Source of the DNA: an uncultured delta proteobacterium
GTDB taxonomy: Bacteria; Desulfobacterota; Desulfobacteria; Desulfobacterales; SG8-13
DNA: 64,000 nt
NCBI GenBank assembly: GCA_963825595.1
Contig: CAWGUE010000031.1
Location: 2,270 to 66,269 of the forward strand
Direction: 5' to 3'
A model generated the notes under the pieces. It worked only from the letters and a program-made list of their open reading frames with translations, made no database searches and had not been told where the DNA came from. Both the position numbers and the translations under genes were made by a program. Shown here piece by piece: positions 37,300 through 61,812 of this stretch. The first letter of the stretch is position 1. Each line of letters starts with the position of its first letter.

Positions 37300-38283
37300 A
37301 TGCCATCACTATCGCGCAGAAAATTTCTCAAACAAGGACTGGCGGCGGCCTGCGCCGCCTGTGCGTCTCAGGTTCCTCTCCCTGCCTCAGCAAAACCGAC
37401 CGAGCCGGGAGAGCTGGCCACGTTAATCGACATCCGTAAATGTATCGGGTGCGAATCGTGCGTCGAAGCGTGCCGCGAGGTCAACGACTTCAAATACCCC
37501 GAGCCGAAGCAGCCTTTCCCCAAAATGTATCCCCGTCGCGTGAAGGTGGCGGATTGGTCCAGTGCTGAAAAACGAGAGGTGCGGGATCGTCTTACCCCTT
37601 ATAATTGGTTGTATATTCAAGAAGCTACCGTAAGCATCGATGGTGAAGAAACAACGCTCAACATTCCCCGACGCTGCATGCACTGCCAGAATCCGCCGTG
37701 CGCCGACCTCTGCCCCTGGGGGGCATCGCGAAAACTCGAGAACGGGATTACGCTGATTGATTCGGACCTCTGTCTTGGCGGGCGTAAGTGCCAGGTGGTT
37801 TGTCCCTGGGACATTCCCCAACGCCAGACCGGTGTTGGTCTTTATCTCGACCTGCTGCCCAATTTCGCCGGCAACGGTGTGATGTATAAGTGCGATCGCT
37901 GTTACAATCGTATCGAAAATGGCGAACTGCCGGCCTGCATCGACGCATGTCCCGAAAACGTCCAATCCATCGGCCCGCGGCATGAGATTATTAAAGAAGC
38001 GCATCGAATTGCAAAGGAAGAAGGCGCCTACATTTACGGAGAAACGGAAAATGGCGGCACAAACACCATCTACCTGTCACCGGTTCCTTTCGAAATGCTG
38101 AATGGAGCTGTCGCCAAGGGGAAAGGACAGCCGCATTTAGACAAGGTCAGGAACCAGATGGCGAGCGCCGATAACCTCGCCAAGGCCATGTTGATTGCAC
38201 CCTTAGCAGGTTTGGCAGCCGCCGCCGGCCGGATCTACAGCGCGACCAAAACCAAAAGCTCTGAAAAAGGAACGGTAGCATGA
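37300..38283 (+). CDS. Tat-exported 4Fe-4S dicluster protein (HybA/NrfC-like)
   Basis: SRRKFLK, CIGCESC, CMHCQNPPC, CLGGRKC, KCDRC, PACIDACP, GGTNTIYLS. Confidence 0.88.
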   Translation: MPSLSRRKFLKQGLAAACAACASQVPLPASAKPTEPGELATLIDIRKCIGCESCVEACREVNDFKYPEPKQPFPKMYPRRVKVADWSSAEKREVRDRLTPYNWLYIQEATVSIDGEETTLNIPRRCMHCQNPPCADLCPWGASRKLENGITLIDSDLCLGGRKCQVVCPWDIPQRQTGVGLYLDLLPNFAGNGVMYKCDRCYNRIENGELPACIDACPENVQSIGPRHEIIKEAHRIAKEEGAYIYGETENGGTNTIYLSPVPFEMLNGAVAKGKGQPHLDKVRNQMASADNLAKAMLIAPLAGLAAAAGRIYSATKTKSSEKGTVA

Positions 38284-38780
38284 AACCAAAATCCGTCGAA
38301 TATATCTTTGCCGAGCAGAAGTTTATCAAACCGATCTATCTTTTCCTTCTTTTCCTCATGGGGCTCACAGGCTTTGCCCAGATGCCGATATTTAAAAGAT
38401 ACTACGTTGCCGATATTCCCGGCTTGGGTTGGCTGGCTCAATTTTACGTCACCCATGCCCTCCACTACATCGGCGCGATTTTGCTTCTGATCGTCATGAT
38501 TTACAGCGCCGCTATCTATCTGGGGGTGATGCGCAAGCGGTTTGATCTGACAATTGCCGCATACGTTAACATAATCCTTCTGGGAGCTATCGTTGGTACA
38601 GGTATTTTTCGCGTTCTGAAAAATCTGCTGGATGTGGTTTTCTCGTCCGGTTTTACCATGTTTATCGATATTGCTCACCTTGGATTCATGTTGGCACTGT
38701 CGCTTTGCGGTGTTATTACCTTGATCACCAAAAGCCCATGGTTACGACAAATTCAATGTATCGAAAAGGGGCAAGCCTGA
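38280..38780 (+). CDS. membrane partner of the Fe-S protein (cytochrome-b-like TM subunit)
   Basis: four TM helices with His (HALHY, DIAH), QMPIFKRYY motif, ATGA overlap with upstream gene. Confidence 0.7.
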   Translation: MKPKSVEYIFAEQKFIKPIYLFLLFLMGLTGFAQMPIFKRYYVADIPGLGWLAQFYVTHALHYIGAILLLIVMIYSAAIYLGVMRKRFDLTIAAYVNIILLGAIVGTGIFRVLKNLLDVVFSSGFTMFIDIAHLGFMLALSLCGVITLITKSPWLRQIQCIEKGQA

Positions 38781-38906
38781 TTCCCGAACAGAAGGATGTT
38801 GAAATACTCTAACCGAAAAGTCGTTCTGTTTTTCAAGTTGAGGTTGCCGAGCACCAGGCAAACCCATGTCCCAAGGGCTCGTAAAGAAATGAGGAGCATA
38901 AACTCT

Positions 38907-39752
38907 ATGAAAATTCGTAAATTAACCTCTTTGACCGTGTCGCTGGCCTTCATCCTGATGGTGCTGACCAGCATCGTTCTCTATATTGTTCCCCAGGGCC
39001 GGGTGGCCTACTGGGCCGACTGGCGCCTGTGGGGGCTGACCAAAACCGATTGGGGAAACATCCATATCAATATGGGCTTGCTGTTTCTCATCGCCCTGTT
39101 TCTGCATATTTACTACAATTGGAAGCCCCTGATGTCCTACCTCAAAAACAAGGCCAAGCAGATGAAAGTGTTTACGCCCGAGTTCAATGTGGCCTTGGTC
39201 ATTATGGTGGTATCGATTGTGGGCACTTATTTCCTGGTGCCGCCTTTTAACTGGGTCATGGCGTTGAATGACAATTTCAAAGATGCCGGCGCAGAAAGAT
39301 ATGGTGAACCGCCATACGGACATGCCGAATTGTCTTCGCTGAAAACGTTCAGTAAGAAGATGAACCTCGATCTCGAAAAAAGCCTGACGCTGTTGACGCA
39401 AGCAGGATACCCCGTCGAGAGTGGAGAGATGACCCTGGAAAAAATAGCGCGGATGTACAACGTTCCGCCCCAGAAGATTTACGAGACCATCAAAGCGGCG
39501 CAAGTCATAGCGGAGCAACAAACAGAAGAAAAAAGCCTGTTACCGCAATCTCCACCTCCGGGATCGGGCAATCTAACACTGGCCGATTTTTGCACACAGT
39601 TCAATTTAAAAATGAAATTGGTGGTTCGGGAACTGAAAAAACTGGGAATTACAGCAACCGAAAAATCGACCCTCAAAGAGATCGCGACGGTCAATGGTAC
39701 CAGCCCGATAGACATTTACGAAAGTATTAAAGAAATTGTGAATCGGAACTGA
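38907..39752 (+). CDS. DUF4405 domain membrane protein
   Basis: TSIVLYIVP.GRVAYWADW, W.NIH, HIYYNW, PPYGHAE. Confidence 0.8.
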   Translation: MKIRKLTSLTVSLAFILMVLTSIVLYIVPQGRVAYWADWRLWGLTKTDWGNIHINMGLLFLIALFLHIYYNWKPLMSYLKNKAKQMKVFTPEFNVALVIMVVSIVGTYFLVPPFNWVMALNDNFKDAGAERYGEPPYGHAELSSLKTFSKKMNLDLEKSLTLLTQAGYPVESGEMTLEKIARMYNVPPQKIYETIKAAQVIAEQQTEEKSLLPQSPPPGSGNLTLADFCTQFNLKMKLVVRELKKLGITATEKSTLKEIATVNGTSPIDIYESIKEIVNRN

Positions 39753-40138: not shown

Positions 40139-41362
40139 TTAAAATTCACACGTCGCCCGCACCCCGGCAATCCAACCGTCCACGTTGTTTCCACTGGCAG
40201 CGGCCACATACCGGTCCTTCATGTACTGCAAATCGAAAGTCAGAGACAGGTATTCGTACAGACCGAAGTTGACGTAAGCTTCGGCCACGTGGGTATTCTT
40301 GAGGCTCTCCTCGGTCTGTTCGGCGCCGTCGAGATAGCCGTAACCGATACCGATGTTGTCCTGTTCGCGGTCCCACAAATTACCGCTGATGTTGATGCCG
40401 CCCGAGTAGACGCTCTTGTAGTTGATCAATGCTTTTGGTTCCTGGAAGCCAAATCGGATCCAGGTGCCGAAAACGTCGCCCAAAGCCTGATCAAAGGAAA
40501 ATATCAAACAGCCGCACCGCTCCTTTAATGACCCCTCCGGATCGAGAAACGCCTCACTAGACCAATTGTAACTCACCCGATAGTGGCCTTGCCCCAGCGA
40601 GGTGTCCAGGGTGTAATTAAATTGAACGCCGTAAAAATTGAAATTGTTGCCGTCGTCGTTTTCCCCAATGTTCATATAGACACCTCTGAGTCCAAAATGG
40701 CGGTAGTCCCACTCGACGGCACCGCCAATATCATCGGACGGTAGAAAGGCGTTGGGCGCATTGACAAGGGCCTCATTCATGAATTGTGTATACTCATCGT
40801 TGGAATATTCGTTGTCGTCCAGGTAGTCGGTAGCATCGATGATTCCACCGGTCAGTCCGAGTGTGTGTTCTTGGCCCAAAGTGAATTCGTGTTTGTACCA
40901 GACCTGAAGCAGGTAATCACGGTTGCGACCGTTGATGTCTTTAACATCATCTTCCAAAGCCGCTGCCCAAGGCGCCAGGCTAAATGCGGTCACACCGGTC
41001 AGGCCGTTGCCGGCCGCGAAGCCGAACTTGATGAAAATCTCGTCGTTTTCGGTGGGTGTGATGCTGATTTCCGGCTTAAAAGACAGCGCTCCACGGCCAT
41101 TGTCATCGATGCCTGAAGGACCGTCAACCCATTCGTACTGATAGGCGCCGGATATGACGCCCCCGAGGGACACGTACTTGGCGATAGCCGACAATCCGTT
41201 GGGCTCGTGAGATTCCGCATCTTCGGTTGCCTGTTTCTTCTCCAGTTCTTCGATCCGCTGCCTGAGGTCTTCAATCTCTTCTTTTCGCGCGTCATCTTCC
41301 GCCCAGGCATTCAATGTCAGAACCATGCCGAATATCACCGCCATCGCAAGGTACTTTTTCAT
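40139..41362 (-). CDS. OprB-like (carbohydrate-selective) outer-membrane porin
   Basis: signal peptide + coiled coil, DATDYLDDN...DE..QFMN, E.Y.N, FDLQY, C-terminal Phe. Confidence 0.75.
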   Translation of the reverse strand: MKKYLAMAVIFGMVLTLNAWAEDDARKEEIEDLRQRIEELEKKQATEDAESHEPNGLSAIAKYVSLGGVISGAYQYEWVDGPSGIDDNGRGALSFKPEISITPTENDEIFIKFGFAAGNGLTGVTAFSLAPWAAALEDDVKDINGRNRDYLLQVWYKHEFTLGQEHTLGLTGGIIDATDYLDDNEYSNDEYTQFMNEALVNAPNAFLPSDDIGGAVEWDYRHFGLRGVYMNIGENDDGNNFNFYGVQFNYTLDTSLGQGHYRVSYNWSSEAFLDPEGSLKERCGCLIFSFDQALGDVFGTWIRFGFQEPKALINYKSVYSGGINISGNLWDREQDNIGIGYGYLDGAEQTEESLKNTHVAEAYVNFGLYEYLSLTFDLQYMKDRYVAAASGNNVDGWIAGVRATCEF

Positions 41363-41485: not shown

Positions 41486-42367
41486 TCAAAAGTGGCTCAG
41501 TGGGCCGCCGGCGTGGTCGACCCAGATATCGACGAAAGGATCGTATTCCGCGGTTCCTTTGAGAATGGGAATGCATTCGATCCCGGCCTTTGTTAGGACC
41601 GACTTCCATGAATCGTCTTCGTCACCGGCCATGTCGTTCTTGGCGTGGTCACCAGCGACGGACATAAACGGCATCAGGTAAGCTTTTTTGATTTTCCTTT
41701 TAAGCAGCAGATCCTTGATCAAATCGACTTCGGGGTAGCCTTCCACCGTGCCGACGAAAACGTTCGGGTCCTGCAGTTGCAGCTGAAACATGAGGGCGGC
41801 ATAAAACGCATTAGACGGGTGATGCGTGCCGTGGCCCATCAGAACCACAGCGTCGATTTTTTTACGGTCTTCGGGAATAATTTTCAAGATCGCGTCCACG
41901 GTCCGCTGCATATCCTGCTGGGTCGCCATCAGGGGGTAGCCCAGGATGATGCTTTGAAAACCGCCCATCATTTTATATGCCCCGACAGTGCGGCGTAGAT
42001 CATGGTATTCCTGCCCGGCAATCGTGTGCAGTGACTGCACGGCCACGTGAGTAAATTTTTCATCCTGCATTTTGGCCAAGGCGACTTCAGGCGAATCCAA
42101 ATACTTTCCTTGCTTGGCCAGTTTTTCGCGTATGATGTGAGAAGTATACGCCCAGCGTACCGGGATGTCGGGATATTTACTTTTAACCTTCCGATCGATA
42201 TTTTCGAAGGAAACTTGAGCGGAAGCTTCACTTGACCCAAAAGCAACGAGGAGAATACCGACCTTCTTGGGATTTTGATGACCATGCCCGCCGGAAGTGA
42301 AACTATTAACGGCAAAAAGAACGATAGCAGCAAAAACTATGACCCCGATCCATCGTTTGCTCTTCAC
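41486..42367 (-). CDS. cbiK: sirohydrochlorin cobaltochelatase CbiK (exported CbiK-P type)
   Basis: LLVAFGSS, AYTS.II, QSLH..AG.EY, MGHGT, GTVEGYP, PFMSVAGDHAKNDMAG; N-terminal signal peptide. Confidence 0.92.
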   Translation of the reverse strand: MKSKRWIGVIVFAAIVLFAVNSFTSGGHGHQNPKKVGILLVAFGSSEASAQVSFENIDRKVKSKYPDIPVRWAYTSHIIREKLAKQGKYLDSPEVALAKMQDEKFTHVAVQSLHTIAGQEYHDLRRTVGAYKMMGGFQSIILGYPLMATQQDMQRTVDAILKIIPEDRKKIDAVVLMGHGTHHPSNAFYAALMFQLQLQDPNVFVGTVEGYPEVDLIKDLLLKRKIKKAYLMPFMSVAGDHAKNDMAGDEDDSWKSVLTKAGIECIPILKGTAEYDPFVDIWVDHAGGPLSHF

Positions 42368-42421
42368 TTTTTTCCTCCTTTATTTAATGCTTTATACTCA
42401 ACGGTATAATGAAAAATTTTT

Positions 42422-42716
42422 GTCCTTATTCAGAGGGTTAATTTCACCGCCCATTCGCTGCGCTCATTAGAGGCATAATGTTCGCAGAGAATTTTCTTTC
42501 TATTTCTTTTCGCTGAAAGGGCAAAAAGAAATAAACCACAGCCCTTACGGGCAGGAAAAGCTATATTTATTTTGCCGAAGGTATTCTGGGTTTCATTTGC
42601 CGGCGTCTCAGCGGCAAATAAAGGATGAAAATTCACTCTGCGCCCTCTGCGACTCTGCGGTGAACAAATGGTCAAATTGACAGCATAGATTACATCGTTA
42701 CCCCCTGAACAAATAC
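42422..42716. mobile_element. MITE-like insertion (295 bp)
   Basis: absent from copy 2; imperfect TIRs GTCCTTATTCAGAGGGT / ACCCCCTGAACAAATAC; 9-bp direct repeat AAAATTTTT at 42413-42421 and 42717-42725. Confidence 0.75.
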
Positions 42717-42736
42717 AAAATTTTTGATGAGAGAAC

Positions 42737-42772
42737 AAAAAAGCCCTTCAACCACCAGCGGCTTGAAGGGCT
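42737..42772 (-). terminator. intrinsic terminator (riboswitch expression platform)
   Basis: minus strand AGCCCTTCAA..TTGAAGGGCT followed by a T-tract, between aptamer and cbiK. Confidence 0.7.
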
Positions 42773-42837
42773 GCACCCAGTTTACTTAACCCTATTGTCT
42801 ATCCGTGCGGTCCCATCTTCCGAAGTTGCACGGCGTA

Positions 42838-43008
42838 TCGTCAAGGCAGGTCTTCTGGCTCCCGGATCAACCGACGATCTGCGCCTTCCCATCCCGCTGA
42901 ATCTCGAAACAGTGGTATCTGCAGATTTCGTCCCCGGTGACAGCGGCGGGACCGCTCCCGATTCACACGGGATTCCCTATTAAGCCGCAAGCGGCACCTT
43001 GATCGATG
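42838..43008 (-). ncRNA. cobalamin riboswitch
   Basis: minus strand AAGGTGCC..AATAGGGAATCCCGTGTGAATCGGGAGCGGTCCCGCCGCTGT..CCACTG..GGGAAGG..GAGCCAGAAGACCTGCC upstream of cbiK. Confidence 0.92.
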
Positions 43009-43055
43009 ACGTACTAATCATCTTATATTCTGTCAATAGGAAACCAAAAATGAGT

Positions 43056-43094
43056 TTGACAAAATTACAATCAACATATAAATAAACATTTATA
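43056..43094 (+). promoter_or_regulatory. sigma70 promoter with overlapping palindrome (candidate ArsR-type operator)
   Basis: TTGACA at 43056; TATAAAT-AAAC-ATTTATA inverted repeat at 43077-43094 over the -10. Confidence 0.55.
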
Positions 43095-43141
43095 CATTAA
43101 TAAATCGTAACGTACCTCTACGACGATGCCATTTAGGGGAG

Positions 43142-43498
43142 ATGCTCCCTGATTCAACGGAAACCATGCTTTTAGAAAAAAACAAAGACAAAAAGGATGC
43201 GCCGAATCTCCAGCATCCTGCTTTTCTTGCGAAAAGTCTCAGTGACGAAAACCGGCTGCGAATTTTGCTTTCAATCAGTGTGCACAAAAAGTCGGTGTCG
43301 TCAATTGTCGAAGAACTCGCCCTGTCACAACCGCTGGTTTCCCATCACCTTAGAGAATTAAAGCGCGCCCTATTGGTTAACATCGAACGCAACGGCCCTT
43401 TTGTATTGTATAAACTTGCCGACAAGCGCGTCATAGAAATCGTTGCCAAGTTGCAAGGTCTGGCAAATGACCTGATCGCCAACAGAACCGGTTTCTAG
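43142..43498 (+). CDS. tsoR: ArsR/SmtB family metalloregulator heading the selenoprotein operon (TsoR-like)
   Basis: KSLSDENRLRIL, LSQPLVSHHLRELK, R.G..V.Y; symbol recalled from memory and assigned by operon context. Confidence 0.85.
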   Translation: MLPDSTETMLLEKNKDKKDAPNLQHPAFLAKSLSDENRLRILLSISVHKKSVSSIVEELALSQPLVSHHLRELKRALLVNIERNGPFVLYKLADKRVIEIVAKLQGLANDLIANRTGF

Positions 43499-43595
43499 TT
43501 CGTGCCATCCACGAATGTTCGCTGGCGTTTTTCAGCGTCCAGCGTAAAAATGACCTTTTGGGATTGATCACGAAGTCTATAGGAGTCACACATAG

Positions 43596-44045
43596 ATGAA
43601 AGAGCTTGAAAGTTTGATAGACCGCATGGACCCGGAAGCGGCGATGGCCGCGATTATCGGCATCGTCAGAAAACTATTTCCTCAAGTCGGCGAATCGTCA
43701 CAGCTGAACTTCGTTTATGCCCTCACCGGCGGCGCCGAGGGAGGCAGTGCTGCCGACCTTGTGCATCTCTGACTGGCCGAGTGCATGGACGAAGGTGTCG
43801 ATCCAACGAAAATGTGCCAGAGTCTGGTAAACAAAGTCGCCCAATCGAAACAGCTTCAGGCGGTTACCGACCCTGAAATCCTTGTCTTGTTCGAGGACTG
43901 GCTGAATGAAATCGAAAATGAAGTGGTGTCATCGGTAAAGAAAACCGGCTCTGACAATCACGCCCAAATTGCCGAACAGACGGGGCTCTCCCGATCGGGT
44001 GCCAATTTCATCATTACCAAGTTGAAACGCGAAGGACGCCTTTAA
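43596..44045 (+). CDS. tsoA: LULAxC-motif selenoprotein (TsoA-like; Sec59; 149 aa)
   Basis: AGGAG RBS + ATG43596 in frame with ORF 43785; TGA 43770 gives VHL-U-LAE-C-MDEG; hairpin TGGA-CGA-AGGTG-TCG-A-TCCA follows; TGA retained in copy 2. Confidence 0.82.
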
Positions 44046-45788
44046 ATGACCACAGGATCATCGCGTTCAAGGACAATGTGGATCGCTCTGGCGGCAGTTC
44101 TGGCGACTATAGCCGCAGTCTGGAGCATTAACCTGCCGCCGGAAATCGTTAAGGCGACAATGGACGATGTGCGGGTCGAAGCCGAGAAGGGCGGCTATCG
44201 ACTCGTGGACATAGACACGCTGGCTGACCTTTATGAAACCCGCCGCGACCGGATCCTGCTTATCGATACGCGACAGCAGTGGGAATATCGCAGCGGTCAT
44301 ATTTCCGGCGCGATTGTTTTCCCAATGGAACCGACGTGGTGGGCGAGATGGCGCAAGAAGGGCGAACTGAAGGCACTCCTGGGTCCGGATAAGCAGAAAT
44401 CGATCGTCTTCTACTGAGCGGGGCTGGCATGAGTCCGCAGCGACTCGGCGGCTCGGGTAGCCGTTCAACTGGGATATCAGAACGTGTTTCGCTATCCGGA
44501 AGGGTATCCGCAGTGGCAGTCAAAAGGGTTGCCGGTAGCCGAAAGTAAGACGAAACCCCTGGCAGATGGTCCCAAATCAGACCTCGCCGGTTCTTTTACT
44601 GGCTGGCAGCTCGTCTGGACGCTCCTCGGCATTTTTGCCGGAGGGTTGGCCTTGAACTTGACCCCTTGTGTCTATCCGCTGATACCCATCACCGTTTCCT
44701 ACTTCGGCGGCAGGAGCGGCACGGGTAAAAGCGGGCTTGTCGGACACGGTATCTGCTACATCGGCGGGCTCTCCCTGACGAATTCGTTTCTGGGCGTCAT
44801 GGCCGCGCTGACCGGCGGCCTGATGGGGGCCATGCTCCAGAATCCTCTGGTGCTTGTCGCCATCGCGGCAGTGATGATCGTCTTTGCATCGAGCCTGTTC
44901 GGGTTATGGGAACTCAGGCTGCCATTCTGGCTGACCCAGGCGGCATCAAAATCATACACGGGATTATTCGGTTCTTTCTTCATGGGGATAACCCTGGGAG
45001 TCGTGGCCGCGCCCTGCATCGGCCCGTTCGTGCTGGGGTTGCTGACCTGGGTGGCCGCCCTAAGTGATCCTCTGGTGGGTTTTGTCGTCTTTTTCATCCT
45101 CAGCCTCGGATTGGGTGCACCGCTTTTCGTGTTGGCCCTTTTTTCGGGTCGGCTGACGCAACTGCCGAAATCCGGCGAATGGATGAACTGGGTCCGGCGG
45201 TTAATGGGCTGGGTTCTTGTGGCCATGGCCGCTTATTTTCTCAAACCGATCCTTCCGGTGGTCATGCAGAAGTATTTGCTGCCGGCAATCGCCATTGCGG
45301 CTGGATGGCAATTGGGATGGCTGGACAAAACCACCGCGACGTTTCGATCGTTTGCCGTGATCAAGATTTTGGTCTCCATTGTCTGCCTGGTTGCCGGCAC
45401 GTATCTGGCCGGCAACCAGTTTTTCAAAGGCCCATCGGTCAGGTGGCATCAATATTCAGATCAACTGTTGGCGGATGCAGTAGGTCAAAACAAACCGGTC
45501 ATCATCGATTTTTATGCCACCTGGTGCGCCCCCTGCCGCGAACTCGACGACATCACCTTCCATCATCCCGATGTGGTCAAATTTTCCCACGATGATTACA
45601 TCATGGTGAAAGTAGATCTGACCAAACAGGGTGATCGACAATATGACCGGTTGTTGGAGACGTACGCGGTCAAAGGGGTACCCACCGTCATTTTTTTGGA
45701 CACCTCGGGACATGAAAGGCAGGACCTACGGCTGGTCGATTTTATTGGACCGGATGCATTTTTGAATCGGATGGTTTCATTGCGGTGA
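44046..45788 (+). CDS. tsoB: rhodanese + DsbD/CcdA membrane domain + thioredoxin fusion selenoprotein (TsoB-like; Sec124, Sec129; 580 aa)
   Basis: ORFs 44046 and 44484 share a frame; SIVFY-U-AGLA-U-VRSDSAARVAVQLGYQNVFRYPEGYPQW completes the rhodanese; LTPCVYP and AAPCIGP (DsbD-beta); WCAPC (Trx). Confidence 0.88.
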
Positions 45789-45857
45789 CACCGGGCAACT
45801 GAACAATAACCCGATGAACCGAATACTGCCCGCAACCCTTACCTAAGGAGACAGCCA

Positions 45858-46175
45858 ATGCTGACCGTGCACTTTTTTCTCAACGAACCCAACGGCAAAC
45901 CGTGAAAGCATTTTAAAAAGATGATGCCCGGTCTGGGCAATACATATGACATTCGAATCGAAACGACATCCAAGCCCAAAGCGGATTACATGACGGACGC
46001 GTACTTCGAGCTCGACCTGCCTGTGGCCCCGGCCGTCATGGTGGGCGAAGAGATCGTGGTGGAAGGAGCGGATCTGGCCCAGAGTGAAATAGAGGCGGCT
46101 ATCTGTAGGCATTTGAATTTGCCGCTCCCGGAAAAGGAAGAAAAGAGGTTTTTTCGAAAAATATTCAAAGAATGA
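45858..46175 (+). CDS. tsoC: NEPxGxxU-motif thioredoxin-like selenoprotein (TsoC-like; Sec16; 105 aa)
   Basis: AAGGAG RBS + ATG45858, MLTVHFFLNEPNGKP-U-KHFKKMMPG via TGA 45903; hairpin TGCCC-GGTCT-GGGCA at 45925-45939; cis-Pro-like VAPAV. Confidence 0.88.
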
Positions 46176-46325
46176 AATGCTCGGATTGTCATTATCTATC
46201 TAGTACCCATCCACGAATATGAGATGGCACCGTTGAGTGTCCCTTAATTTTGGGATGGGAGAGGTCATTAGCGACTTCAGCGCGCAACCCATGCATAAGG
46301 CAGCCTAAGGAAAGGATTCACGGGA

Positions 46326-46628
46326 ATGGATCGTCGAAGGGTTATGGTTGAGATTGTTGCGAAAAAAAAAGGGTGTATGATGTGCGATCTTGCGATTGGC
46401 ATTCTCGAGGAAATCACTCCTGAATTCGATGCTGGGATTCTGCAGTGGCAGGTCGTCGATGTCGGTTCGCGTGAAGGGGTTGCACGCCATGCCGAACTTG
46501 GTTCCATTTGCGGGCGTATGCCGGCTGTACCTTCGATTGTGATTAACGAAGCCATCGCCTTTGACAACATACCAGACATGGCGTCCTTGACAGTGGCGGT
46601 GCGAAAGGCAAGCCACTCGAATGCTTGA
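46326..46628 (+). CDS. small thioredoxin-fold protein, CMMC
   Basis: VEIV..KGCMMCD, AVPSIVIN. Confidence 0.75.
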   Translation: MDRRRVMVEIVAKKKGCMMCDLAIGILEEITPEFDAGILQWQVVDVGSREGVARHAELGSICGRMPAVPSIVINEAIAFDNIPDMASLTVAVRKASHSNA

Positions 46629-46707
46629 ATTTTAACACTGAATAAGGGATAGATAATGCTGAAAAGATATTTTAGAAGGAAGTGAGGCAGATGTGGTATT
46701 ATGGAAT

Positions 46708-47048
46708 GTGTGCAGTGACTCACGGCCACGTGAGTAAATTTCTCATCCTGATTTTGGCAAAGGTTCTTCAGGCGAATCCAAGTACTTTCCCTGCTTGGCC
46801 AATTTTTTGCGTATGATGTGAGAAGTATACGCCCAGCGTACCGGTATGTCGGGATATTTACTTTTAACCTTGCGATCGATATTTTCGAAGGAAACTTGAG
46901 CGGATGCTTCACTTGACCCAAAAGCAACGAGGAGAATACCAACCTTCTTGGGATTTTTATGACCATGTCCACCGGAAGTGAAACTATTAACGGCAAAAAG
47001 AACGATAGCAGCAAAAACTATGACCCCGATCCATCGTTTGCTCTTCAC
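46708..47048 (-). pseudogene. cbiK: cbiK 5' fragment (duplicate, truncated and frameshifted)
   Basis: first ~94 aa nearly identical to 41486-42367, then breaks at the duplication junction. Confidence 0.85.
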
Positions 47049-47217
47049 TTTTTTCCTCCTTTATTAATGCTTTAAACTCAACGGTATTATGAAAAATTTT
47101 TTACTATGAGAGAACAAAAAAGCCCTTCAAACACTATCGGTTTGAAGGGCTGCACCCAGTTTACTTAACCCTTTTGTCTATCCGTGCGGTCCCATTCTCG
47201 CGAAGTTGCACGGTGTA

Positions 47218-47390
47218 TCGTCAAGGCAGGTCTTCTGGCTTGCGGATCAACCGACTATCTGCGCCTTCCCATCACGTTGAATCACCAAACAGTGGTGTTT
47301 GCAGATTTCGTCCCCGGTGACAGCGGCGGGACCGCTCCCGATTCACACGGGATTCCCTATCAAGCCGCAAGCGGCACCTTTGATCGATGA
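47218..47390 (-). ncRNA. cobalamin riboswitch (copy 2)
   Basis: same conserved elements as 42838-43008; terminator at 47116-47151. Confidence 0.88.
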
Positions 47391-47545
47391 CCTACTAATC
47401 ATCTTATATTCTGTCAATAGGAAACCAAAATTGAGTTTGACAAAATAACAATCAACATATAAATAAACACTTATATATTAATAAATAAAACGCGCCCATA
47501 CGACGATGCAATTTAGGGGAGATGCTCCCTGATTGAACGGAAGCC

Positions 47546-47880
47546 ATGCTTTTAGAAAAAAACAAAGACAAAAAGGATGGCGCGAATCTCCAGCATCCTG
47601 CTTTTCTTGCGAAAAGTCTCAGTGACGAAAACCGGCTGCGAATTTTGCTTTCAATCAGTGTGCACAAAAAGTCGGTGTCGTGCAATTGTCGAAGAGCTCG
47701 CCCTGTCACAACCGCTGGTTTCCCATCACCTCAGAGAATTAAAGCGCGCCCTATTGGTTAACCATCGAACGCAACGGCCCTTTTGTATTGTATAAACTTG
47801 CCGACAAGCGCGTCATGGAAATCGTTGCCAAGTTGCAAGGTCTGGCAAATGACCTGATCGCCAACAGAACCGGTTTCTAG
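47546..47880 (+). pseudogene. ArsR/TsoR-like copy 2, frameshifted
   Basis: indels near 47680-47700, 47760 and 47815 relative to copy 1. Confidence 0.75.
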
Positions 47881-47977
47881 TTCGTGCCATCCACGAATGT
47901 TCGCCGGCGCTTTTCAGCGTCCAGCGTAAAAATGGCCTTTTGGGATTGATCACGAAGTCTATAGGAGTCACAAATAG

Positions 47978-48427
47978 ATGAAAGAGCTTGAAAGTTTGAT
48001 AGATCGGATGGACCCGGAAGCGGCGATGGCCGCGCTGGCCGGCATCGTCAGAAAACTCTTTCCTCAAGTCGGCGAATCGTCACAGCTGAACTTCGTTTAC
48101 GCCCTCACCGGCGGCGCCGAGGAAGGCAGTGCTGCCGACCTTGTGCATCTCTGACTGGCCGAGTGCATGGACGAAGGTGTCGATCCAACGAAAATGTGCC
48201 AGAGTCTGGTAAACAAAGTCGCCCAATCGAAACAGCTTCAGGCGGTTACGGACCCTGAAATCCTTGTCTTGTTCGAGGACTGGCTGGATGAAATCGAAAA
48301 TGAAGTGGTGTCATCGGTAAAGAAAACCGGCTCTGACAATCACGCCCAAATTGCCGAACAGACGGGGCTCTCCCGATCGGGTGCAAATTTCATCATTACC
48401 AAGTTGAAACGCGAAGGACGCCTTTAA
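47978..48427 (+). CDS. tsoA: TsoA-like selenoprotein, copy 2 (TGA 48152)
   Basis: same frame and VHL-U-LAEC motif as copy 1. Confidence 0.8.
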
Positions 48428-50171
48428 ATGACCACAGGATCATCGCGTTCAAGGACAATGTGGATCGCCCTGGCGGCAGTTCTGGCGACTATAGCCGCAG
48501 TCTGGAGCATTAACCTGCCGCCGGAAATCGTTAAGGCGACAATGGACGATGTGCGGGTCGAAGCCGAGAAGGGCGGCTATCGACTCGTGGACATCGACAC
48601 GCTGGCTGACCTTTATGAAACCCGCCGCGACCGGATCCTGCTTATCGATACGCGACAGGAGTGGGAATATCGCAGCGGTCATATCTCCGGCGCGATTGTT
48701 TTCCCAATGGAACCGACGTGGTGGGCGAGGTGGCGCAAAAAGGGCGAACTGAAGGCACTCCTGGGTCCGGATAAGCAGAAATCGATCGTCTTCTACTGAG
48801 CGGGGCTGGCATGAGTCCGCAGCGACTCGGCGGCTCGGGTAGCCGTTCAACTGGGATACCAGAACGTGTTTCGCTATCCGGAAGGGTATCCGCAGTGGCA
48901 GTCAAAAGGGTTGCCGGTAGCCGAAAGTAAGACGAAACCCCTGGCAGATGGTCCCAAATCAGACCTCGCCGGTTCTTTTACCGGCTGGCAGCTCGTCTGG
49001 ACGCTCCTCGGCATTTTTGCCGGAGGGTTGGCCTTGAACTTGACCCCTTGTGTCTATCCGCTGATACCCATCACCGTTTCCTACTTCGGCGGCAGAAGCG
49101 GCACGGGTAAAAGCGGGCTTGTCGGACACGGTATCTGCTACATCGGCGGGCTCTCCCTGACGAATTCGTTTCTGGGCGTCATGGCCGCGCTGACCGGCGG
49201 ACTGATGGGGGCCATGCTCCAGAACCCTCTGGTGCTTGTCGCCATCGCGGCAGTGATGATCGTCTTTGCATCGAGCCTGTTCGGGTTATGGGAACTCAGG
49301 CTGCCATTCTGGCTGACCCAGGCGGCATCAAAATCATACTCGGGATTTTTCGGTTCTTTCTTCATGGGGATAACCCTGGGAGTCGTGGCCGCGCCCTGCA
49401 TCGGCCCGTTCGTGCTGGGGTTGCTGACCTGGGTGGCCGCCCTGGGTGATCCTCTGGTGGGTTTTGTCGTCTTTTTCACCCTCAGCCTCGGATTGGGTAC
49501 ACCGCTTTTCGTGTTGGCCCTTTTTTCGGGCCGGCTGACGCAACTGCCGAAATCCGGCGAATGGATGAACTGGGTCCGACGGCTAATGGGCTGGGTTCTT
49601 GTGGCCATGGCCGCTTATTTTCTCAAACCGATCCTTCCGGTGGTCATGCAGAAGTATTTGCTGCCGGCAATCGCCATAGCCGCCGGTTGCCATTTAGGAT
49701 GGCTGGACAAAACCACCGCGACGTTTCGATCGTTTGCCGTGATCAAGATTCTGGTCTGCCATTATTTGCCTGGTTGCAGGCACGTATCTGGCCGGCAACC
49801 AGTTCTTCAAAGGCCCATCGGTCAGATGGCATCAATATTCGGATCAACTGTTGGCAGATGCAGCCGGTCAAAACAAACCGGTCATCATCGATTTTTATGC
49901 CACCTGGTGCGCCCCCTGCCGCGAACTCGACGACATCACCTTCCATCATCCCGATGTGGTCAAATTTTCCCACGACGATTACATCATGGTGAAAGTAGAT
50001 CTGACCAAACAGGGTGATCGACAATATGACCGGTTGTTGGAGACGTACGCGGTCAAAGGGGTACCCACCGTCATTTTTTTGGACACCTCGGGACATGAAA
50101 GGCAGGACCTGCGGCTGGTCGATTTTATTGGACCGGATGCATTTTTGAATCGGATGGTTTCATTGCGGTGA
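48428..50171 (+). CDS. tsoB: TsoB-like selenoprotein, copy 2 (TGA 48797 and 48812; +1 frameshift near 49758)
   Basis: same U-x4-U motif; the Trx domain continues in frame 49851-50171. Confidence 0.8.
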
Positions 50172-50240
50172 CACCGGGCAACTAAACAATAACCCGATGA
50201 ACCGAATACTGCCCGCAACCCTTACCTAAGGAGACAGCCA

Positions 50241-50558
50241 ATGCTGACCGTGCACTTTTTTCTCAACGAACCCAACGGCAAACCGTGAAAGCATTTTAAA
50301 AAGATGATGCCCGGTCTGGGCAATACATATGACATTCGAATCGAAACGACATCCAAGCCCAAAGCGGATTACATGACGGACGCGTACTTCGAGCTCGACC
50401 TGCCCGTGGCCCCGGCCGTCATGGTGGGCGATGAGATCGTGGTGGAGGGGGCGGATGTGGCCCAGTATGAAATAGAGGCGGCTATCTGCAGGCATTTGAA
50501 TTTGCCGCTCCCGGAAAAGGAAGAAAAGGGTTTTTTACGAAAAATATTCAAAGAATGA
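50241..50558 (+). CDS. tsoC: TsoC-like selenoprotein, copy 2 (TGA 50286)
   Basis: same NEPNGKP-U motif and GGTCT hairpin. Confidence 0.85.
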
Positions 50559-50708
50559 AATGCCCGGATTGTCATTATCTATCTAGTGCCCATCCACGAA
50601 TATGAGATGGCACCGTTGAGTGTCCCTTAATTTTGGGATGGGAGAGGTCATTAGCGACTTCAGCGCGCAACCCATGCATAAGGCAGCCTAAGGAAAGGAT
50701 TCACGGGA

Positions 50709-51011
50709 ATGGATCGTCGAAGGGTTATGGTTGAGATTGTTGCGAAAAAAAAAGGGTGTATGATGTGCGATCTTGCGATTGGCATTCTCGAGGAAATCAC
50801 TCCTGAATTCGATGCTGGGATTCTACAGTGGCAGGTCGTCGATGTCGGTTCGCGTGAAGGGGTTGCACGCCATGCCGAACTTGGTTCCATTTGCGGGCGT
50901 ATGCCGGCTGTACCTTCGATTGTGATTAACGAAGCCATCGCCTTTGACAACATACCAGACATGGCGTCCTTGACAGTGGCGGTGCGAAAGGCAAGCCACT
51001 CGGATGCTTGA
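50709..51011 (+). CDS. small thioredoxin-fold protein CMMC, copy 2
   Basis: differs from 46326-46628 only near the C-terminus. Confidence 0.75.
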   Translation: MDRRRVMVEIVAKKKGCMMCDLAIGILEEITPEFDAGILQWQVVDVGSREGVARHAELGSICGRMPAVPSIVINEAIAFDNIPDMASLTVAVRKASHSDA

Positions 51012-51178
51012 ATTTTAACACTGAATAAGGGATACGATGAGCGACCGTCTATCCAAGATCGATGAACACATATAGAGAAATCTTTAAAACAGATCAATTT
51101 CGATACTGTGACTGTCGCGGACAGGAGATCGACTAAGCGGGAACCGGGCAGGATGACGATATCCGCGCCGGTCTAATG

Positions 51179-54947: not shown

Positions 54948-56288
54948 ATGCAAATCATCGCAAAAATAATTTTGTTGCTCATGGTTATCGGTTTTTCAAC
55001 GCCGGTATCGGCAGTCAGTGCACAAAAGTTAAAGCTAACAGCAGAACAATCATCACATCAATTTCCGTTTTTCGACGCGCAAACCCCGGTCTGGTCGTAC
55101 AATGGTTCGATACCCGGCCCTACCATTCGCGGCCAGGTGGGACAAACCATCGAAGTTGAATTCATCAACAATCTGGACGAGCCTTCCAGCATCCATTGGC
55201 ACGGATTGATTGTCGATAACGCCATGGACGGTGTCCCAGGCGTCACCCAGGACCCGGTAAAAGCCGGAGATCGCTTTTCCTATCGGCTTAAACTCCGGGA
55301 TGCCGGAACATACTGGTATCACCCCCACCTCAATGGCAGCGAGCAGTTGGGGCGCGGACTTAAAGGTGCGCTTATCGTGGAACCGAAGGAAAAACTTCCC
55401 TGGTCTCAGGACATTGTCTGGCTTATCGACGACTGGCTCCTTGAAAAAAGCGGAGATATCTTTCCAAGCTTCAACACCGGCCGCGACCTGATGCACGACG
55501 GCCGCTGGGGAAATGTCGTCACTATCAACGGTAAATATCAACCCAAGGTTTCGGTAACTCCGGGTGAACGCATCCGCATCCGCCTCATAAATGGTGCTAA
55601 TGCACGGGTCCTTATGCCCCTCTTTAACGGAATCGATGCCCATGTAATCGCAGTGGATGGAAAACCGGTTTCACAAATTTTCAAATACAACGGCTTCGAT
55701 CTCGCCCCAGGCAACCGAATCGATCTGGACATCATCATACCGACCGAAGCGCAGGGCCACACCTACGTTGTTGAAGATGGGTTCACACGAAACAAGTTTC
55801 CGTTGGCATCAATAGAGGTAAAAGAGGTTCAACCGGTCCAGACACCGGTATTCGATCCAACGACAGCTGAAGATTTTTTACCGGCAAATGTTTTTTCAAA
55901 GGTCACACCTTCAAAAACGTGGGATCTCGATGCCATCCGAGGAGGAAAATTCGGCATCGGATGGGCAATGAATCGTCTGCTGTGGCCCAATAGCGACACG
56001 GCCGACATTCCGATGGGACAACCACAAAAAATTGTGTTCAGAAACAATAGTTCGCGGCTGCATCCGATGCACATCCACGGAACATTCTTCAGGGTGTTGG
56101 AACGCAACGGAAAACCTGAAGCAGAGCCATTTACGAGGGATACCGTTCTGCTGAGTGCCCGGGAATCTGTTGTCATCGGGCTTGTGCCGACTGAACCAGG
56201 CATTTGGATGTCGCATTGCCACATACAATCTCACGCGGAAGCGGGTATGATGACTACCGTCAATGTGGCCCCCCAACGCTCAGATTAA
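54948..56288 (+). CDS. multicopper oxidase
   Basis: signal peptide, IHWHG, WYHPH, HPMHIHG, HCHIQSHAEAGM. Confidence 0.92.
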   Translation: MQIIAKIILLLMVIGFSTPVSAVSAQKLKLTAEQSSHQFPFFDAQTPVWSYNGSIPGPTIRGQVGQTIEVEFINNLDEPSSIHWHGLIVDNAMDGVPGVTQDPVKAGDRFSYRLKLRDAGTYWYHPHLNGSEQLGRGLKGALIVEPKEKLPWSQDIVWLIDDWLLEKSGDIFPSFNTGRDLMHDGRWGNVVTINGKYQPKVSVTPGERIRIRLINGANARVLMPLFNGIDAHVIAVDGKPVSQIFKYNGFDLAPGNRIDLDIIIPTEAQGHTYVVEDGFTRNKFPLASIEVKEVQPVQTPVFDPTTAEDFLPANVFSKVTPSKTWDLDAIRGGKFGIGWAMNRLLWPNSDTADIPMGQPQKIVFRNNSSRLHPMHIHGTFFRVLERNGKPEAEPFTRDTVLLSARESVVIGLVPTEPGIWMSHCHIQSHAEAGMMTTVNVAPQRSD

Positions 56289-56960: not shown

Positions 56961-57034
56961 TTCAACCGGTAATCGCACCATGTCGACTGCCGCTTACAAC
57001 AGCATCACTTAGAGCGTAAAAGGAGGTGATTACA

Positions 57035-57538
57035 ATGGCCGAACGAACCGGATTAATTCTCCATACTTTTGACAATGGCATGGCGGAGGTGGTTACCGAC
57101 CGCAAAAACGCCTGCGGAGGGTGCGAGCACTCGCACGGATGTCGATCATGTCTGACCAGCGCCAAAATGGTCGCTATGGTGAAAAACCCCATTGGGGCCG
57201 ATCAAGGGGACGTGGTTTCGATCTACCTGAAGGAATCCGCGCTCTGGACCGGCGCCGTTTTCCTTTACATCATCCCGGTCTTGTGGCTGATGGCCGGGGC
57301 TTTTGTCGGCGCCAGCGTGGGCAGCGAGTGGCAGATGGGTGAAACCGGTGCTGCCATCTTGGTGGGCCTATTAGGACTCGCCCTTGGTTTTATGATGACC
57401 ATGGCCATCTCAAAGTCAGCGAGCTTTGGCCTGAAGCTCGTCCCTCAGATCACACGGGTCATCGAGCGTGCAAAAACAGCTGTAGTTAAGGGCACCACCG
57501 GCATCAATACAACCCCGAATGCCGCTTGTTGTGGATAG
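57035..57538 (+). CDS. RseC family membrane protein (second copy)
   Basis: ACGGC...GC.SC, N.IGA..GD.V, LYIIP, C-terminal ACCG; AGGAGGTG RBS. Confidence 0.82.
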   Translation: MAERTGLILHTFDNGMAEVVTDRKNACGGCEHSHGCRSCLTSAKMVAMVKNPIGADQGDVVSIYLKESALWTGAVFLYIIPVLWLMAGAFVGASVGSEWQMGETGAAILVGLLGLALGFMMTMAISKSASFGLKLVPQITRVIERAKTAVVKGTTGINTTPNAACCG

Positions 57539-57912: not shown

Positions 57913-58461
57913 GTGAACGTTTATGAAACCGGATTGATCGCCGTGTCTCTCGGCTGCGATGCTTTTGCAGTCGGGCTTGGCGTGGGTACGCGCTGTGGTG
58001 CGCCCCGGCAGGTATTTCGGCTGTCGTTTCATTTCGGTCTCTTTCAGTTCATGATGCCGCTGATCGGCTGGATGGCCGGCCATTACTTAATGGACTGGAC
58101 GCAAAGGTGGGGAGGCTGGATAGCTTTCGGTCTCCTTATTTTTATCGGTGCCAGGATGGTTCGAGAAGGCGCGTTACATGATGAAGAAAAGGTATCATGC
58201 CCCGACCCCACAAAAGGCATGAGTTTGGTGATGCTTTCCCTGGCCACAAGTATCGATGCCCTAGTCGTCGGATTTGGCATCGGTATTATGGGACAAAGCT
58301 TTTATTGGATGGCGGTGTGGATCGGCATCACGGCAGCCGGGATGACCTGGCTGGCCATGAAGTTGGGCAACAAACTATCCGGCAGATTTACCCAGCGGAT
58401 GGAAATTTTTGGGGGTCTTCTCCTGATAGCGATCGCTTTTAAACTGCTGCTTGCCGGATGA
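57913..58461 (+). CDS. mntP: manganese efflux pump MntP
   Basis: DAFAV, FGLFQ..MP.IGW, LATSIDAL.VG, E..GG..LI. Confidence 0.9.
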   Translation: MNVYETGLIAVSLGCDAFAVGLGVGTRCGAPRQVFRLSFHFGLFQFMMPLIGWMAGHYLMDWTQRWGGWIAFGLLIFIGARMVREGALHDEEKVSCPDPTKGMSLVMLSLATSIDALVVGFGIGIMGQSFYWMAVWIGITAAGMTWLAMKLGNKLSGRFTQRMEIFGGLLLIAIAFKLLLAG

Positions 58462-60776: not shown

Positions 60777-61274
60777 ATGAACACGAAAGCAAAAGGAATA
60801 ATGATACTAATGATTTTAGCAATCTTTGGCATAACTACCCTGTCGATTGCCGGTTGGGGCCGGGGATACGGACATATGATGGGTCCGGGTTGGAATCAAA
60901 TGGGTGGATATGGGTATGGCCAAGAAGGATACTCGGGCAACCTTTCAAGTAAGGAGATAGCAAAACTGAATCAACAACGTGCTGAATTCTTCAAAGCGAC
61001 TGAAAATACCCGGCAACAGCTTTACGAAAAAGAGCTTGCCCTGAGAAGCGAGATGGCCAAGGAAAATCCGGACATCGCGAAAGCATCGAGTCTGCAAGGT
61101 GAAATTTCCAAGCTTCAAGCTGACCTCGATAAGAAAGGGCTGGATTATGAACTTCAGGCCAGAAAATCAGCACCCAATTATGACCGTGGCTATGGAGGAT
61201 ATGGCCCAATGATGGGAAATGGCCCGATGATGGGCTATGGTCCCAATAGTGGTGAATATTACTGCAGGTGGTAA
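60777..61274 (+). CDS. ZraP/Spy-like periplasmic heavy-metal sensor/chaperone
   Basis: signal peptide, GWGRGYGHMMGPG, LYEKELALRSEM..NPD, C-terminal YCRW; paralog of 46-562. Confidence 0.85.
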   Translation: MNTKAKGIMILMILAIFGITTLSIAGWGRGYGHMMGPGWNQMGGYGYGQEGYSGNLSSKEIAKLNQQRAEFFKATENTRQQLYEKELALRSEMAKENPDIAKASSLQGEISKLQADLDKKGLDYELQARKSAPNYDRGYGGYGPMMGNGPMMGYGPNSGEYYCRW

Positions 61275-61330: not shown

Positions 61331-61443
61331 TTATAATATTATACGGCCAGGTAAAACCAAAAAAAATAGTTCTGTGATCTTGTGAAAATGGTCAATTTAC
61401 GGCCTATTTATGGCATTTGGCGATTTCGTTCAGGGTGTATAAA

Positions 61444-61812
61444 ATGAAAGACAAAAACAGGTTCCGAAAAGTGTTGGCGGGATCCTTATCCGTGTTGGTA
61501 CCAGGCAGTTTATTTTTAGCAAATCCCACTTTGGCCCAATCAGGCCGGTACAATGACTGGCACATGGGGCGTTGGATGATGGACGGGTGGGGAATGGGAT
61601 GGTTCGGTATGATTTTTATGATTATATTCTGGGGCCTGATTGTTGTCGGCCTCGTGTCGCTGATTCGATGGCTGATTCAGAAAACGAGCCGTAAAGGGCA
61701 TTCTGGTGTAAGCGTGGGCCCTAAAGCGATTGATATTCTCAAAGAGCGCTATGCCAAGGGAGAAATCTCCCAGGATGAATTTGAAACCATGAAAAAGGAC
61801 ATACTCCAATAA
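61444..61812 (+). CDS. SHOCT-domain membrane protein (Met/Gly/Trp-rich)
   Basis: HMGRWMM..WGMGWFGM TM segment; ILKERYAKGEISQDEF. Confidence 0.85.
   Translation: MKDKNRFRKVLAGSLSVLVPGSLFLANPTLAQSGRYNDWHMGRWMMDGWGMGWFGMIFMIIFWGLIVVGLVSLIRWLIQKTSRKGHSGVSVGPKAIDILKERYAKGEISQDEFETMKKDILQ

Follow-up and report, generated by a model that had tools for sequence, protein, structure and literature searches.

The window analysed here, a stretch of 64,000 nucleotides (nt) from one contig of an uncultured delta proteobacterium, carries at positions 43142-46628 an operon that is almost certainly a member of the already described Tso (three selenoprotein operon) system, tsoR-tsoA-tsoB-tsoC. The explanation that best accounts for the whole, to which we give a probability of about 0.6, is that this Tso operon encodes a transmembrane relay, TsoB, with a rhodanese domain holding a diselenide, and that TsoR represses the operon. 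A preliminary description of the region had implied that the system was new. It is in fact published: a 2026 review (PMC13188914) names Tso, cites Haft & Tolstoy 2025 (mSystems 10:e0141724) and, in the sections accessible to us, gives Tso families with the motifs LULAxC, UxxxxU and NEPxGxxU. The present instance adds nothing fundamental to that system, and the additional points reported below are leads, not proofs.

The standard code splits the region into short open reading frames (ORFs), and reading TGA as selenocysteine (Sec, U) gives five clean genes:

43142-43498, plus strand: tsoR, 118 amino acids (aa), ArsR/SmtB-type, no Cys (NF045707, 158 bits against a cut-off of 115; Pfam HTH_5)
43596-44045, plus strand: tsoA, 149 aa, U59 (TGA 43770-43772) in the motif HL-U-LAE-C (NF045695, 211.3 against 170 bits)
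44046-45788, plus strand: tsoB, 580 aa, U124 and U129 (TGA 44415 and 44430) in the motif FY-U-AGLA-U (NF045694, 933.5 against 805 bits)
45858-46175, plus strand: tsoC, 105 aa, U16 (TGA 45903-45905) in the motif NEPNGKP-U (NF045708, 144.5 against 45 bits)
46326-46628, plus strand: thioredoxin-like gene, 100 aa, C17-MM-C20

In a profile search with TGA read as Sec, all four Tso proteins exceeded the curated NCBIfam cut-offs, so that the names TsoR, TsoA, TsoB and TsoC, which the preliminary description had given, proved right. Also confirmed, coordinates and motifs included, are its three selenoprotein genes, which lie side by side behind an ArsR-type gene and hold four Sec codons, and its account of the translation signals: AGGAG lies 10 nt 5' of the tsoA ATG and AAGGAG 7 nt 5' of the tsoC ATG, and the tsoB ATG directly abuts the tsoA TAA. 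Both tsoB and tsoC terminate at ordinary TGA stops. A scan of one genome per species yielded 124 TsoB relatives, from which 80 loci were kept, nearly all from Thermodesulfobacteriota and mostly from metagenome-assembled genomes. The order tsoR-tsoA-tsoB-tsoC on one strand is found in the window and in 43 of these 80 loci; many of the rest are truncated at the end of a contig. In a survey of the phylum, a sample of 401 genomes, TsoB passed its cut-off in 26 (about 6%).

The window agrees with the Tso operon of the review, as far as its accessible sections go, in gene order and in the motifs HL-U-LAEC, FY-U-AGLA-U and NEPNGKP-U. It differs in that the unit stands here in tandem duplicate with a damaged second copy, and in that the extra gene is a Cys-type thioredoxin-like gene, whereas those sections name the selenoproteins TsoX, TsoY and HUIPC. 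Searches of the genome for TsoX and TsoY gave no match; control genomes were likewise without a match, and the result is hence uninformative. The SAO (Sec-assisted organometallic) operon, in the part of its description accessible to us, is similar in that it holds several selenoprotein genes and that its function is inferred from context; it is built, however, from other protein families, and no Sao family matched here.

It is very probable that Sec is inserted at all four UGAs. In the 80 loci, TGA stands at the Sec codon in every covering match (51 of 51 for tsoA, 80 of 80 at each of the two codons of tsoB, 72 of 72 for tsoC), which is more than chance would give, and protein conservation continues on both sides of these codons. 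In the phylum sample, each of the 30 rows that exceed the TsoB cut-off has exactly two TGAs. Among nine full-length non-Sec TsoB entries that were fetched, four (P0007, P0009, P0011 and P0013) have C-x4-C at the positions of U124 and U129, one has G/R and one G/C, and neighbouring rhodaneses show C-x4-C or C-x4-U. Contigs from sediment metagenomes of other studies and from one RNA library cover parts of the operon at 93-100% identity. Those from the RNA library, which may hold DNA, fall on parts of tsoA, tsoB, tsoC and the thioredoxin-like gene, and one of them, 55 nt long, is identical across TGA 45903. No difference fell on a TGA among the difference rows listed (40 of 187), which concern contigs only, with partial cover.

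A hairpin follows each TGA, as had been described at about 13-19 nt; the measured starts are 13, 13, 15 and 20 nt after the TGAs of tsoA, tsoB (44415), tsoB (44430) and tsoC, respectively. These hairpins resemble Sec insertion sequence (SECIS) elements:

43786-43805, plus strand: tsoA SECIS-like hairpin, 6 pairs, bulged A, loop AAGGUGU, from the consensus structure of 49 sequences
44431-44446, plus strand: tsoB hairpin 1, GAGUC-CGCAGC-GACUC, after TGA 44415, with the second TGA in its 5' arm
44448-44464, plus strand: tsoB hairpin 2, 15 nt after TGA 44430, 6 pairs, loop CGGGU
45926-45938, plus strand: tsoC SECIS-like hairpin, GCCC-GGUCU-GGGC, 20 nt downstream of the TGA

The conserved hairpins carry G-containing loops, that of tsoC being the GGUCU (GGTCT in the DNA) already pointed out in the preliminary description, and covariation is seen in three of the four. 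In the tsoA hairpin, which occupies alignment columns 17-36 after the TGA, the pair 20-33 changes from G-C to A-U in 12 of 49 sequences, a Gly/Asp change being coupled to a synonymous change. Across 80 sequences, 96.8% of cells are paired in tsoB hairpin 1 and 99.4% in hairpin 2, where compensatory changes from G-C to A-U occur in 10 sequences and from C-G to U-A in 7; taken together, the two tsoB hairpins pair in 98.2% of cells, against at most 61.3% when the partners are slid. In the tsoC hairpin CCC/GGG does not vary in any of 70 sequences, third codon positions included, and the closing pair shows four double changes and three breaks. The support for these hairpins comes from conservation and covariation, not from folding energy. 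An Rfam scan of the window returned two cobalamin riboswitches only and no SECIS family.

The genome encodes selA (607.9 bits), selB (375.7 bits) and selD (375.7 bits), all over their cut-offs in a genome profile search; selD, at G000:C14:195262-196185 (G000 being this genome), itself contains an in-frame TGA, and only one. Contig C8 encodes a true HUIPC thioredoxin-like selenoprotein with one TGA (G000:C8:35041-35310, 140 bits) as well as further thioredoxin-like genes, including one at 61387-61611.

TsoB is probably a DsbD-type transmembrane relay with a periplasmic rhodanese as end acceptor, its topology and direction of flow being inferred. Its Pfam domains are Rhodanese (67-159), DsbD_TM (190-403; PF02683, 139.9 bits) and Thioredoxin_7 (466-552), and U124, U129, C208, C324, C494 and C497 are invariant in all 79 aligned TsoB sequences. 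The hydropathy profile gives an N-terminal anchor at 8-32, after SRSR, followed by eight transmembrane (TM) segments at 187-458, with a basic loop after the first of the eight; by hydropathy and the positive-inside rule, the rhodanese and thioredoxin domains would be periplasmic. U124 takes the place of the catalytic Cys of the rhodanese, and U129 lies where the active-site loop ends, and the occurrence of relatives with C/C, C/U or U/U at the same spacing fits a redox-active dichalcogenide.

DsbD and ScsB, according to the accessible part of PMC10907172, are built around eight TM segments with two essential Cys and end in a periplasmic thioredoxin domain that carries CxxC. TsoB has this layout by its hydropathy profile and shares the TM core with two conserved Cys and the C-terminal thioredoxin CxxC, whereas a rhodanese with two Sec occupies the place of the immunoglobulin-like alpha domain and its Cys pair, and the score against the DsbD model NF001419, 269.2 bits, is under the cut-off of 330. 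With the rhodanese-family selenoproteins (forms 1-4 in the accessible sections of PMC13188914) TsoB has in common the rhodanese fold and a Sec at the catalytic Cys position; unlike them, it has a second Sec five residues further on and a rhodanese domain fused to a membrane relay, and it reaches only 31.1 bits against the rhodanese selenoprotein model NF041203 (cut-off 115).

In the relay that we propose, a cytoplasmic reductant (thioredoxin or a like donor) would reduce the TsoB membrane pair C208/C324, from which electrons would pass to the periplasmic C-terminal thioredoxin domain (C494-x2-C497) and then to the rhodanese U124/U129 of the same protein, in place of the DsbD alpha domain. U124/U129 may alternate between two selenols and a diselenide (or Se-X adduct) and would in doing so reduce or carry a chalcogen-containing or thiophilic periplasmic substrate. 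For that substrate, a sulfur or selenium species is tentatively put first, a soft metal(loid) is rather unlikely and repair of protein thiols more unlikely still. The electron and chalcogen relay, possibly for metal handling, that the preliminary description had put forward would fit the anatomy of TsoB and the local metal-gene neighbourhood.

The other two selenoproteins lack a signal peptide, and both should therefore be cytoplasmic. Besides the motif HL-U-LAE-C, TsoA has an invariant C74. Its AlphaFold2 (AF2) model consists of helices only, and a resemblance to a helix-turn-helix (HTH) is confined to the final ~45 residues; Pfam likewise finds a sub-threshold HTH_24 at the C-terminal end. 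The AF2 model of TsoC (mean predicted local distance difference test, pLDDT, 76; predicted template modelling score, pTM, 0.62) is a thioredoxin fold with the order beta-alpha-beta...beta-beta-alpha, in which the Sec is placed at the start of helix 1; its best fold matches are the arsenic chaperone ArsD (E 1.5e-3, TM score ~0.5) and then thioredoxins, and a Pfam search of TsoC returned nothing. TsoC would thus be a cytoplasmic thioredoxin-fold protein with one Sec, and TsoA a helical cytoplasmic protein that bears U-x3-C and whose C-terminal part is HTH-like.

Across 55 TsoR sequences no column keeps a Cys, 27 of them have no Cys at all, and the alpha-5 His/Asp site is absent as read by eye. 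Sensing of metals or persulfides by TsoR itself, the role that the preliminary description had assigned to ArsR/SmtB proteins, is therefore unlikely. Like the BigR, CmtR and ArsR sensors, TsoR is a winged-helix repressor beside its probable target genes, with a palindromic candidate operator; it differs from ArsR/SmtB sensors in lacking conserved Cys or other evident ligand residues, and the TsoR of the window scores only 36.8 against 155 bits for BigR and 32.8 against 150 for CmtR. The candidate operator lies within an intergenic region shared with a cobalamin riboswitch:

43070-43101, unstranded: candidate TsoR operator, an imperfect palindrome (14-4-14) of the form ATCAACATATAAAT-aaac-ATTTATACATTAAT, placed 41 nt 5' of the tsoR ATG

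A similar palindrome (at least 21/32) is present in 36 of 51 tsoR upstream regions, while shuffled sequences give a mean of 16 and a maximum of 21. With up to two mismatches, the palindrome core occurs in the window only here and at 47456, both of them tsoR promoters (0.02 expected), and elsewhere in the whole genome at only two other weak sites. TsoR would be a repressor of the tso operon, acting at this conserved palindrome.

In 70 loci with enough upstream sequence, TsoR and TsoA occur together in 45, TsoR only in 4 and TsoA only in 1, these loci being kin and not independent. A second operon type has neither tsoR nor tsoA; directly before tsoB it carries one protein of 223-241 aa, a fusion of an ArsR HTH with a C-RGPY-C rhodanese. 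That this fused ArsR-rhodanese replaces TsoR and TsoA suggests that TsoA supplies the sensing function that TsoR appears to lack. A more specific form of this idea, though an unlikely one, is that TsoA is a Sec-based sensor working with TsoR, oxidation or loading of U59-x3-C63 (with C74) being passed on via the HTH-like end; what leads to it is the absence of sensing residues in TsoR, the co-occurrence of the two proteins and the ArsR-rhodanese fusion found in the same place. If true, TsoA/TsoR would be a Sec-dependent transcriptional switch, with a signal passed to TsoR or to the operator.

The fifth gene had been counted as a member of the operon, as a CxxC thioredoxin, and this part did not hold up. 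A relative of it was found in 0 of the 80 related loci, a terminator-like hairpin (46226-46241) lies between it and tsoC, and its product (motif GCMMC) reaches 51.8 bits against the HUIPC model NF047660, with a cut-off of 105, and 20.6 bits against TIGR00411. By its profile scores it seems to be related only distantly to the HUIPC thioredoxin-like family, and by its distribution it would be a local addition, not a conserved part of Tso.

The operon lies in a tandem duplication: 42727-46654 and 47106-51038 are 97.1% identical over 3936 nt, with 11 gap positions, and a further 402 nt of cbiK are repeated at 94.5%. The whole duplicated extent (42020-46654 and 46705-51038, ~4.4 kb) takes in partial cbiK, the cobalamin riboswitch, the tso genes and the thioredoxin-like gene. 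The second copy reads as follows:

47522-47880, plus strand: tsoR2, broken, with a TGA at codon 5 and two frameshifts
47978-48427, plus strand: tsoA2
48428-50171, plus strand: tsoB2, with a +1 insertion at 49758, inside TM8
50241-50558, plus strand: tsoC2
50709-51011, plus strand: trx2, the second thioredoxin-like gene

All four TGAs are kept in this diverged copy, as the preliminary description had it, with identical 9-nt flanks; tsoR2 and tsoB2, however, are frameshifted. The ratio of non-synonymous to synonymous changes (pN/pS) between the copies is 0.11-0.30, and 0.11-0.21 in the Tso genes, even past the frameshift, which suggests that the damage to copy 2 is recent or that it is an assembly error. 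The +1 insertion was found in no read contig; such contigs drop rare variants. It is possible that the assembly of two strains produced the tandem copy artificially. Two TsoB genes, and tso units repeated in tandem, are also found in other genomes.

A third tso locus of this genome belongs to the second operon type:

G000:C30:201760-204637: third tso locus, with a 223-aa ArsR-HTH/rhodanese gene (C-RGPY-C), tsoB and tsoC, and no tsoA

The tsoB of this locus has at least three frameshifts; its tsoC is intact and 71% identical. The frameshift sites of copy 2 and of the C30 tsoB lie within ~4 codons of each other, and programmed frameshifting was considered and rejected: the C30 gene has further frameshifts, 79 of the 80 related loci give a single tsoB match running from before residue 40 to past residue 570, and each of ten loci inspected has one unbroken main tsoB match. 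Genes of the window (41486-64000) are repeated at G000:C30:197000-226800 in another order, at 71-98% protein identity, and recur in a related locus (L032); they include those for CbiK, an Lcl_C protein, a weakly CueP-like protein, two multicopper oxidases and RseC, among others. This segmental paralogy could reflect a metal-related island that is present more than once, or the bin, with a contamination estimate of 2.3%, could hold a second strain.

The two cobalamin riboswitches are on the minus strand, at 42828-43016 (109.9 bits) and 47210-47396 (106 bits). The first leads a CbiK-like gene with a signal peptide (41486-42367) and an OprB-like porin gene (40139-41362), and the second now leads a cbiK fragment only (46632-47048). 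This adjacency is not conserved in the related loci, CbiK occurring in 1 of 80 and the porin in 0 of 80. What resembles a small redox module of the membrane lies upstream of the porin, at 37300-39752; it comprises genes for a DUF4405 membrane protein and a HybA/HmcB-like iron-sulfur protein together with an ORF of 166 aa. An ORF at 59286-59903 matches, over residues 68-203, the C-terminal part of GRDB (PF07355, 47 bits), the glycine/sarcosine/betaine reductase selenoprotein B family, and may belong to a further selenoprotein gene or be a fragment.

Among the neighbours of tso in other genomes, a DedA/TVP38-type membrane gene (PF09335, VTT) follows tsoC directly on the same strand in 31 of the 80 loci (e.g. 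L031:10118-10807), starting within ~330 nt or less of tsoC in 22 of 29 measurable loci. This genome has no close DedA copy near tso; its best matches, on contigs C13 and C10, are 28-31% identical. A link between DedA proteins and selenite, drawn from one sentence of a review, is a lead only. Thioredoxin reductase is encoded upstream in 8 of the 80 loci, a GcvH-related carrier between tsoB and tsoC in 6, a methyltransferase nearby in 9, an ABC ATPase in 13 and an RND/CzcB-type adaptor in 7.

Several results weigh against the interpretation of the operon as a Sec-based, TsoR-controlled relay. The tRNA gene selC was not found in the 95%-complete draft of 36 contigs by ARAGORN, the Rfam tRNA-Sec model, a motif scan or examination of the sel gene surroundings, so that, of the four sel genes whose confirmation the preliminary description had asked for, selA, selB and selD are present and selC alone was not detected. 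ARAGORN gave 49 tRNAs, none for Sec; the best match to RF01852 (46.2 bits against 47) is a tRNA with another anticodon, and none of 13 low-score tRNA-Sec candidates matched any Rfam family. The alignment of homologs that had been proposed as a check for Cys or Sec at the UGAs bears out TsoB, with its four C-x4-C entries in nine, but not TsoA: no Cys form was seen among the 11 full-length entries fetched, all of which have W, a residue attributable to gene calling with TGA read as Trp. Single-sequence folds of stretches of the window were no better than shuffles (z -0.19, -0.37 and -0.54). Hairpin 1 of tsoB, which has the second TGA in its arm, shows almost no covariation (a double change in 1 of 80 sequences), so that hairpin 2 alone might serve both tsoB codons. 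The topology of TsoB is read from hydropathy and charge alone, the TsoA model is weak (pTM 0.38, pLDDT ~50 in the Sec region), and a fold search with it gave HTH matches only, at E 0.5-2, and none outside HTH. Neighbours vary between genomes and thus do not fix the substrate. Finally, in a literature text search for Tso terms only the 2026 review matched, and no experiment on any Tso protein was retrieved.

If the TGAs were ordinary stops, the region would consist of split or decaying genes and not of selenoproteins. All three genes are indeed broken by standard ORF calling, tsoB and tsoC themselves end in TGA, real frameshifts exist in copy 2 and at the C30 locus, and the failure to find selC would agree with this; it is nevertheless scarcely credible, given that all covering matches in the 80 loci have TGA at the same codon, flanked on both sides by conserved protein sequence, that non-Sec relatives have Cys at the TsoB positions, that the conserved hairpins covary, that selA, selB and selD are in the genome, and that pN/pS between the copies stays at 0.11-0.21 across the Tso genes. 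It is also very unlikely, though less so, that TsoB is only a housekeeping DsbD/CcdA protein, serving cytochrome c maturation and disulfide isomerisation beside unrelated small genes. TsoB matches DsbD (NF001419, 269 bits) and DsbD_TM, and databases call its truncated forms DsbD; yet its score is below the DsbD cut-off, its alpha domain is exchanged for a Sec-rhodanese, it sits in a fixed R-A-B-C order (43 of 80 loci) that has its own regulator and operator, it was found in only 26 of the 401 sampled genomes, and this genome has other DsbD/CcdA-like genes (C14:186986, C21:121642 and C5:91194).

A role in protecting the envelope from metals deserves more weight, although we regard it as rather improbable. 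Tso would then do with selenium what the Scs system does in Salmonella: TsoB, like ScsB, would supply the periplasm with electrons that keep thiols or metal sites reduced under copper or other soft-metal stress, or that reduce the metal itself. Both tso regions of the genome lie among metal genes, and those downstream of the tso copies in the window are:

54948-56288 and 61832-63427: multicopper oxidases
57026-57538, 57913-58461 and 60777-61274: remaining metal-related genes

Besides the oxidases, the downstream genes include RseC/MucC, an MntP-type efflux protein and a Metal_resist (PF13801) protein, which lend some local support to metal handling, in this lineage only. These neighbours also surround the second-type tso locus of C30 and the locus L032, and RND/CzcB-type adaptors (7 of 80 loci) and ABC ATPases (13 of 80) could be read in the same sense. 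The DsbD-family protein ScsB is needed for copper resistance and hands Cu+ to CueP, according to the accessible part of PMC10907172, and ArsD is the best fold match of TsoC. On the other hand, multicopper-oxidase and CueP-like neighbours were found in only 1 of 80 other loci, the CueP-like gene of the window scores 26.3 bits against a cut-off of 60 and has no Pfam match, TsoR is without metal-ligand cysteines, and the ArsD match is weak at the values given above.

Most database entries for TsoA and TsoB are wrong. Among the matches listed, ~110 of 120 TsoB relatives are truncated 'DsbD' proteins, mostly of 433-450 aa, and 106 of 120 TsoA relatives are fragments of 86-91 aa; in the full-length TsoA entries (11 fetched), the Sec codon is read as Trp. 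To the Tso system we contribute the palindrome, the ArsR-rhodanese variant operon, the DedA/VTT neighbour and the metal-gene setting, some of which the primary paper may already contain. Handles for tests are offered by the operator motif, by the second type of operon and by carriers in culture, among them Desulfoprunum benzoelyticum DSM 28570 (L058), Desulfobulbus sp. Tol-SR (L048) and the Desulfomicrobium strain to which the model name Dbac_1936 refers. With four selenocysteines in three neighbouring proteins, the Tso system places a heavy selenium cost on one pathway; knowing its substrate would explain that cost in these anaerobes and would give the DsbD-type redox systems of the envelope a further branch, one based on selenium.

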